Below, piece by piece: positions 4,403-4,460 of a stretch of DNA of 64,000 bases; position 1 is the first letter of the stretch, and each line of letters opens with the position of its first letter. The notes beneath the pieces are model-generated. The model was not told the origin of the DNA. It worked only from the letters and a program-made list of their open reading frames with translations, and did no database searches. The stretch lies in assembly GCF_058153355.1 (NCBI RefSeq), contig NZ_CM177019.1; one strand, 5' to 3'. The position numbers were made by a program, and so were the translations under genes.

Positions 4403-4460
4403 GCCCGAGGTAATCTGAAAAAGGTGCAAAAGATTGCACCTTTTTCAGATTACCTCGGGC
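4403..4460. terminator. bidirectional intrinsic terminator / 27-bp-arm perfect palindrome between convergent yjcF and yjcE
   Basis: gcccgaggtaatctgaaaaaggtgcaa-aaga-ttgcacctttttcagattacctcgggc; inner stem flanked by A5/T5. Confidence 0.7.

Follow-up and report, generated by a model that had tools for sequence, protein, structure and literature searches.

Template switching as the probable origin of a perfect 58-bp palindrome at the yjcF-yjcE terminator of Escherichia coli

In E. coli, a palindrome of 58 bp lies between the convergent genes yjcF and yjcE. It is best explained overall, with a probability of about 0.75, as a terminator core whose outer 15 bp are a by-product of template switching. 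The length of the palindrome is better explained by mutational history than by function. Here, we describe the palindrome in a stretch of 64,000 nt (the window, to which positions refer unless stated otherwise) and follow its alleles through ~4,115 complete E. coli genomes that carry the locus.

Anatomy of the palindrome and its terminator core

The features of the locus are as follows.

2844-4402, + strand: low-GC (33%) yjcF island, from actP to the terminator, with the left outer arm of the palindrome at its right edge
3021-4313, + strand: yjcF (espX5), encoding a pentapeptide-repeat protein; rare 'W' haplotype, ~94% identical in nucleotides to the majority
4403-4460, no strand: perfect palindrome with 27-nt arms and loop AAGA, from the sequence, an inverted-repeat search and folding
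4403-4429, no strand: left, yjcF-proximal arm, variable among strains and replicated second by the leading strand
4410: variable site, G in the window; C in ~99.5% of genomes, there a stem mismatch
4414: variable site, T in the window; C in ~99.5% of genomes, there a stem mismatch
4418-4419: variable dinucleotide, AA in the window and TT in ~99% of genomes; AA would restore the U5 of the yjcE-direction terminator
4418-4445: putative core bidirectional intrinsic terminator (A5 + GGTGCAA-AAGA-TTGCACC + T5), ending yjcF on the + strand and yjcE on the - strand
4434-4460, no strand: right arm, next to yjcE and presumably the template; the window and K-12 do not differ in it
4481-6130, - strand: yjcE, encoding a Na+/H+ antiporter, convergent, with its stop codon 20 nt from the palindrome

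An inverted-repeat search and the gene positions bear out what the sequence-only reading had described here, a 58-bp palindrome with 27-bp perfect arms between convergent yjcF and yjcE. The arms (4403-4429 and 4434-4460) are 100% complementary over 27 nt and enclose a 4-nt loop (GCCCGAGGTAATCTGAAAAAGGTGCAA-AAGA-TTGCACCTTTTTCAGATTACCTCGGGC), and the palindrome begins 89 nt past the yjcF stop codon and 20 nt past that of yjcE. It is the longest among the inverted repeats of the window, and the number of perfect inverted repeats of such size expected by chance in 64 kb is ~4e-11. When folded in a 101-nt context, the RNA of either strand forms a single unbroken helix, at -51.7 kcal/mol (z -9.7) for the + strand and -53 kcal/mol (z -12.5) for the - strand. 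An assembly artefact is ruled out because the same perfect palindrome occurs in 19 independent complete E. coli genomes. The window holds other terminator-like palindromes, none of them near 27-nt arms: AAGAAAGCCGGATGATCATCCGGCTTTTTT at 31435-31464, whose arms overlap and which appears bidirectional, AACAATGCCGACT-…-AGTCGGCATTGTT at 49621-49649, with perfect 13-nt arms, and a 14-pair hairpin followed by a T-run on the - strand at 6235-6266, in the ghxP-yjcE spacer.

An extragenic palindrome at convergent 3' ends sits where REP elements typically do, and it might thus belong, intact or as a remnant, to a family of repeated palindromes (REP/BIME, ERIC/IRU, MITE), if not simply a chance feature. 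We give this next to no credence. A search of the window for the outer arm with up to three mismatches returned 3 matches against 1.3 expected, two of which are the palindrome itself, and no further copies of the outer arms were found elsewhere in the window or in E. coli genomes. With a 94-nt query, 4,118 of the 5,426 E. coli genomes searched gave matches, at a single locus each, the median of two places per genome being one site counted on both strands. Moreover, no repeat is annotated at the palindrome in MG1655, and the chance expectation given above argues against coincidence.

The working part of the palindrome would be the 7-bp GC-rich hairpin at 4423-4440, flanked by A5 and T5. Its stem, GGTGCAA/TTGCACC, has four G-C pairs and a 4-nt loop (-8.7 kcal/mol on the + strand, -9.6 kcal/mol on the - strand) and lies just 3' of two convergent stop codons. 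In the window allele, both strands read from the GC-rich stem-loop straight into a U-rich tract, with TTTTTCAG directly after the hairpin and UUUUUCAG after the 7-bp stem in either direction. The core is near-invariant across ~4,100 E. coli genomes and identical in every fully read E. coli allele except those of BY63 and R32_14_1F, which carry a G>A stem SNP. In E. albertii and E. coli 14EC007, the core reads GGTGCGA-TTTA-TCGCACC, with a different loop and an A-T to G-C compensatory change, the one covarying pair that supports the stem. Because of its place between convergent stop codons, the 7-bp stem, the U5 tails on both strands, the near-invariance and the compensatory pair, the core is most plausibly a Rho-independent terminator that yjcF and yjcE share and that works in both directions. 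The same observations support the earlier proposal that the inner A5-hairpin-T5 segment is a bidirectional terminator. A generic terminator scanner made no call at the core; it extended the stem into the outer arms, beyond which a T-run is absent.

Sequence differences within the core would affect one direction only. Toward yjcE, the hairpin is followed by UUUAACAG in the majority allele and by UUUUUCAG in alleles with AA at 4418-4419, so that TT>AA turns the U-tract from UUUAAC into UUUUUC. The corresponding U-tract term is 2.50 for the majority allele and 3.83 for the AA alleles; we used the d'Aubenton-Carafa formula, and since the d-score as coded was implausible, this term and plain U counts were retained. 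The sole predicted functional effect of the variation thus sits in the core, where TT>AA would make termination symmetric. In strain YDC107, an ISEc35 element (IS5-like) lies within the inner terminator stem, after AAAGG (at ~425 of the locus read).

Published K-12 data concern the imperfect allele only and are based on 800-nt windows. They contain no curated Term-seq 3' end in the K-12 spacer (MG1655 4281650-4281707; Adams et al., 2021, PMC7815308, supplementary file 1) and place Rho termination regions on both sides of it, at 4281854(+) with a score of 6.7 and at 4281402(-) with a score of 5.4 (PMC7815308, supplementary file 2). These regions, from bicyclomycin data, are antisense to yjcE and to yjcF and flank the palindrome (PMC7815308), which implies convergent read-through or antisense transcription across the K-12 spacer. 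Together with the lack of a curated Term-seq end, they suggest that the imperfect K-12 site is leaky, or that yjcF and yjcE are poorly expressed, and the U-tract prediction for the AA alleles is consistent with a leaky K-12 site. Our literature search returned no paper that treats yjcF, yjcE and the terminator together, the TERMITe supplements gave no match for the spacer and the MG1655 annotation has no feature at the palindrome.

Left-arm alleles across E. coli genomes

The perfect palindrome is a rare allele. We sorted the ~4,115 complete E. coli genomes with the locus into BLAST identity classes with real and synthetic queries of 40-61 nt; counts differ by ~2 genomes between queries, which we attribute to the trimming of local alignments. 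Alleles are named after the bases at 4410, 4414 and 4418-4419.

C..C..TT, exact: ~3,950 genomes
C..C..TT with one further SNP: ~122 genomes
C..C..AA: 23 genomes
G..T..AA (perfect): 19 genomes, namely 18 of the W haplotype and EC43
W haplotype with an inner-stem G>A (R32_14_1F): 1 genome

The left arm of the majority, K-12 included, reads GCCCGAG-C-TAA-C-CTG-TT-AAAGGTGCAA, with the variable bases set off by hyphens. Against an unchanged right arm it has four mismatches, leaving a quasi-palindrome with 23 of 27 positions paired and an intact 10-bp inner stem. No genome among the ~4,115 lies within one mismatch of C..C..AA or of the synthetic G..T..TT query, so that TA, AT, C..T..AA, G..C..AA, G..C..TT, C..T..TT and G..T..TT are absent. 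The alleles observed form a nested series only, which grows outward from the inner stem, and every multi-base change goes toward exact complementarity.

Single-base variants behave differently from these multi-base changes. In the two of the ~122 single-SNP variants that were read, an inner-stem G>A in BY63 and a T>C at position -12 in 7_11_88A, the change breaks pairing. EcPNK004, VCSW5 and CFSAN018748 carry the right arm CAAATTACC, in which a G>A at the window equivalent of 4448 adds a fifth mismatch, and the left arm is unmatched to it in all three strains read. Overall, the outer pairing contains 2-5 mismatches in >99% of genomes. Since the SNP variants read disrupt pairing and the G>A of the EcPNK004 type stands uncorrected, we see no sign of selection for outer pairing in these alleles.

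These data bear on the sequence-only reading, which had proposed an additional role for the outer 15-bp extension (protein-binding site, RNA-stability element or recombination-prone cruciform) and had made it depend in part on conservation of the outer arms in related strains. The arms are indeed kept as sequence, whereas their complementarity is not: perfect outer pairing is found in 19 of ~4,115 genomes, the sampled SNPs add mismatches and the arms have no copies elsewhere. Moreover, termination at the core would precede transcription of the distal outer arm; by this mechanism, terminated RNAs would lack that arm and could not hold the 27-bp helix. We therefore do not follow the suggestion of an added role.

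In its more specific form, such a role would mean that the extended helix is selected as an RNase III or RNA-stability hairpin, a polymerase pause or roadblock, a dimeric protein site or a cruciform, which we regard as quite improbable. The perfect stem is certainly very stable (-49 kcal/mol against -33 to -39 kcal/mol for the K-12 allele), and according to one proposal, polymerase pausing and collisions are programmed by the hairpins of bidirectional terminators (bioRxiv 10.1101/2022.10.23.513370). Since K-12 shows read-through in both directions (PMC7815308), some transcripts could contain the full-length helix, and the recurrent TT>AA could reflect selection for a better yjcE terminator. 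However, the scarcity of the perfect form, the 2-5 outer mismatches elsewhere, the pairing lost in the sampled point variants and the absence of the distal outer arm expected of terminated transcripts all argue against it. Furthermore, the element occurs once per genome, the MG1655 annotation has nothing at its place and no Rfam family matches above threshold, the sub-threshold matches being to generic long-hairpin models of miRNA precursors (e.g., 40.9 bits against a gathering value of 90). Regarding a protein site, the published binding data that we found lie in the actP-yjcF spacer and not in the yjcF-yjcE spacer; the gSELEX papers naming yjcF concern this promoter spacer only.

A combination of mutational and functional explanations is conceivable, in which a quasipalindrome fires recurrently and its products are adaptive: TT>AA would repair the U-tract toward yjcE, and the 27-bp helix or cruciform would serve as a barrier or processing site. 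We rate this decidedly unlikely. If true, template switching would supply ready-made terminator improvements for selection, and the H-NS-silenced yjcF island would be the source of the converging or read-through transcription on which the barrier acts.

Recurrence, polarity and ancestry of the left-arm changes

The change from imperfect to perfect can be followed in near-isogenic strains. Over 15.2 kb, EC43, which is perfect, is separated from E. coli W, which is imperfect, by 6 substitutions. The left-arm sites account for four of the six (C>G, C>T and TT>AA), all within 10 bp, and the remaining two are 2.9 and 4 kb distant. The EC43 background is of the majority type on both sides of the palindrome, with the closest markers that exclude the W haplotype at -21 and +96 from the palindrome start. 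The sole length difference between EC43 and E. coli W in 15 kb is a 68-bp indel between acs and yjcH (EC43 locus 3924-3991; …GCCGGATGCG…GCCTGATAAGACGCG…) that resembles a REP element.

The shorter change has also occurred more than once. Among six backgrounds compared, TT>AA is found on at least three local haplotypes, which differ from one another within -40/-49 to +96/+162 of the palindrome start. One C..C..AA haplotype shows no difference from strain 1303, a carrier of TT, over 2.75 kb, and in a background comparison over 3.26 kb with the C..C..AA strain CFSAN061761, 24 genomes differ by a score deficit equal to two mismatches. To import C..C..AA from a perfect haplotype, a crossover would have to fall within 3 bp, between 4414 and 4418. 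The EC43/W pair, the C..C..AA haplotypes (at least three) and the lack of a plausible donor together make the case for recurrent multi-base changes directed at one arm. Four differences in 58 bp are in line with the ~6% divergence between haplotypes, and the transition/transversion pattern is not significant; hence, the argument rests on pattern and recurrence and not on the number of changes.

Very short recombination (gene-conversion) tracts are unlikely to have carried the perfect and part-corrected alleles onto non-W backgrounds. The region is shuffled, as the mosaic yjcF haplotypes of Z226-5 and XJ34 illustrate, and EC43 would need no more than 10-116 bp from a W-type donor. However, EC43 has no other W-haplotype marker in 15 kb, and W-type donors make up ~0.4% of genomes. 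C..C..AA has no donor except itself, and its import from W would need the 3-bp breakpoint described above on at least three backgrounds. We infer that the changes arose by template switching and not by micro-recombination.

Such changes are what a known mechanism, quasipalindrome template-switch mutation, characteristically leaves behind (PMC7202029; PMC5941160; PMC8794818). Imperfect inverted repeats are corrected to perfect ones via template switching (Lavi et al., 2018, PMC5941160), and a perfect stem can be created or fixed by a single template-switch event (Monttinen and Löytynoja, 2022, PMC8794818). The substrate, an imperfect inverted repeat, is present as the majority allele, and clustered multi-base changes of one arm appear without single-step intermediates, both in the 23 genomes with TT>AA and in the four-site change of EC43. 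In the proposed mechanism, the growing leading strand would proceed from right to left in the window, copy the right arm, the loop and the inner left arm and then fold back, briefly using its own right arm as template. The left arm would thereby be rewritten as the exact complement of the right arm. Tracts of differing length from the inner stem could yield the two derived alleles, a short tract changing only TT to AA and a long tract fixing all four mismatches to give perfect 27-bp arms.

This mechanism makes a prediction about which arm is rewritten. Quasipalindrome mutation has a strand bias documented in PMC7202029, which cites Rosche (1997), Yoshiyama (2001/2003) and Seier (2011). At the present locus, it is the left arm that bears every correction. 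All eight 8-kb bins of the window have negative GC skew on the + strand, and in MG1655 the locus maps to 4.28 Mb, clockwise of oriC and thus on the clockwise replichore. From skew and map position, the fork runs right to left and meets the right arm first. The changes are thus confined to the arm synthesised second, which is the polarity expected of a leading-strand switch, although the independent events are small in number (at least four to five).

The age of the perfect state depends on the history of the yjcF region. A GC content of 33% for yjcF and its flanks (2844-4402), against 55% for actP upstream and for yjcE, marks the region as an acquired island. A gSELEX table marks H-NS in the actP-yjcF spacer (PMC3946193). 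The island is missing from E. albertii and a few E. coli strains; in E. albertii and 14EC007, actP and yjcE are directly convergent, and in PMV-1 LysR and CidA/LrgB genes replace the island, with a different terminator hairpin (GTTGGCGGGC-TC-GCCCGCCAAC). The protein collection searched holds no YjcF orthologue outside E. coli and hence no yjcF-bearing outgroup: two 90%-identity YjcF clusters and fragments were found, all from E. coli. The full-length clusters, the rare type of the window with 207 members and the majority type with 11,060, share 89% amino acid identity and correspond to two deep yjcF haplotypes with ~94% nucleotide identity. A search of genome contigs from different species for the inner-hairpin pattern gave 62 matches, which are unrelated terminator-like hairpins except in E. 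albertii. P0003 and P0008 carry majority-type alleles.

Several side observations concern the same neighbourhood. Insertion sequences cluster at the locus: besides YDC107, an IS1 replaces yjcF to ~16 bp left of the palindrome in CUWW06 (~1445-1500 of the locus read), interrupts yjcF in Z226-5 (221-918) and adjoins yjcF in PigCaeca_1 (1-106). A 14-bp segment of the yjcF 3' UTR (CTCACGGACTTCTG, window 4360-4373) is deleted in K-12 and most others; CFSAN018748 retains it with one change, and its left arm is nevertheless imperfect. Twelve nucleotides past the actP stop codon, at 2855-2874, lies an 8-bp hairpin without a U-tract (CCCCGGTC-GCTT-GATCGGGG). Its K-12 form is perfect, with two differences (CCCCGGTC-GTCT-GACCGGGG), and it may be a further stem that evolves through paired changes.

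Could the perfect palindrome instead be ancestral, made once at or after insertion of the yjcF island and kept in the W haplotype, with C..C..TT as its decayed derivative? We hold this possible, though doubtful. The W haplotype is an outgroup to all other yjcF haplotypes (93-94% identity, against 95.7-98.7%), so that parsimony within E. coli cannot polarise the four sites; their number fits the ~6% background divergence of haplotypes, and mutating a perfect palindrome anywhere yields a mismatch. Yet perfecting is seen directly on non-W backgrounds, in EC43 against E. coli W and for TT>AA on at least three backgrounds. In addition, the E. albertii-type flank (...CCAACCGATAAAAGG) agrees with the majority at 3 of the 4 sites and with the window at the remaining one, in ~13 nt of uncertain homology. 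These ~13 nt favour a probable ancestor C..C..TA with the window state derived, and the perfection of the window haplotype may be derived rather than ancestral. An ancestral palindrome would still require a template switch to produce its 15 extra complementary bases, whose chance (~1e-9) is so small that such an event is needed under either polarity. In the E. albertii-type locus, the terminator is followed on its right by CAGATTAAGTCGGGC, which is already similar to the right outer arm, and on manual pairing the left flank pairs with the right side at chance level only. These flanks suggest that the long palindrome is specific to yjcF-bearing E. coli and that the right arm is the older one.

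Comparison with known systems

If template switching extended this terminator, the locus is a natural illustration of a mechanism known mostly from engineered reporters or from statistics. Substrate, short-tract product, full-tract product and a near-isogenic pair that represents before and after occur in one species at one locus, with the expected polarity. For genome scans, this advises caution: a palindrome of exceptional length or perfection need not have an additional function, and 'compensatory' substitutions that cluster in a stem may go back to one mutation event. In K-12, the locus would also lend itself to convenient use as a native reporter of template-switch mutagenesis on the chromosome.

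Dispersed repeats offer a superficial likeness. REP/BIME elements are likewise extragenic palindromes in 3' UTRs and between convergent genes; in contrast to them, the yjcF-yjcE palindrome is single-copy, lacks the REP consensus, is not annotated as a repeat and belongs to no dispersed family. With bidirectional intrinsic terminators of convergent E. coli genes, it shares one GC-rich hairpin with A- and T-tracts 20-90 nt from the stop codons, a conserved core and the compensatory pair in E. albertii. Unlike ordinary members of this class, the window allele has 15 more perfectly paired bases beyond the A/T tracts. The K-12 allele departs from the typical form in its broken yjcE-direction U-tract (UUUAAC) and in the Rho regions downstream on both strands.

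The closest relatives are found among quasipalindromes. Template-switch mutation as modelled by Ripley (1982), studied by Rosche and Sinden (1997) and measured with the QP5/QP6 lacZ reporters of the Lovett laboratory (PMC7202029) has in common with the yjcF-yjcE locus the multi-base perfecting of one arm, the lack of single-step intermediates and an arm polarity that fits a leading-strand switch. Unlike in the lacZ reporters, the process is deduced here from natural variation in ~4,100 genomes, with a terminator in an intergenic spacer as substrate and conversion tracts of 2 bases and of 4 sites over 10 nt, which form a nested series. Lavi et al. (2018) and Monttinen and Löytynoja (2022) proposed the same process, in which imperfect repeats are preferentially perfected and perfect stems arise or become fixed in a single event. 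Their studies are statistical, that of Lavi et al. with arms <20 bp only, whereas here a single locus with 27-bp arms presents the ancestral, partial and complete states in one species together with a near-isogenic pair. The yjcF-yjcE palindrome is a functionally ordinary shared terminator and a new, well-documented example of known phenomena, real and non-random.
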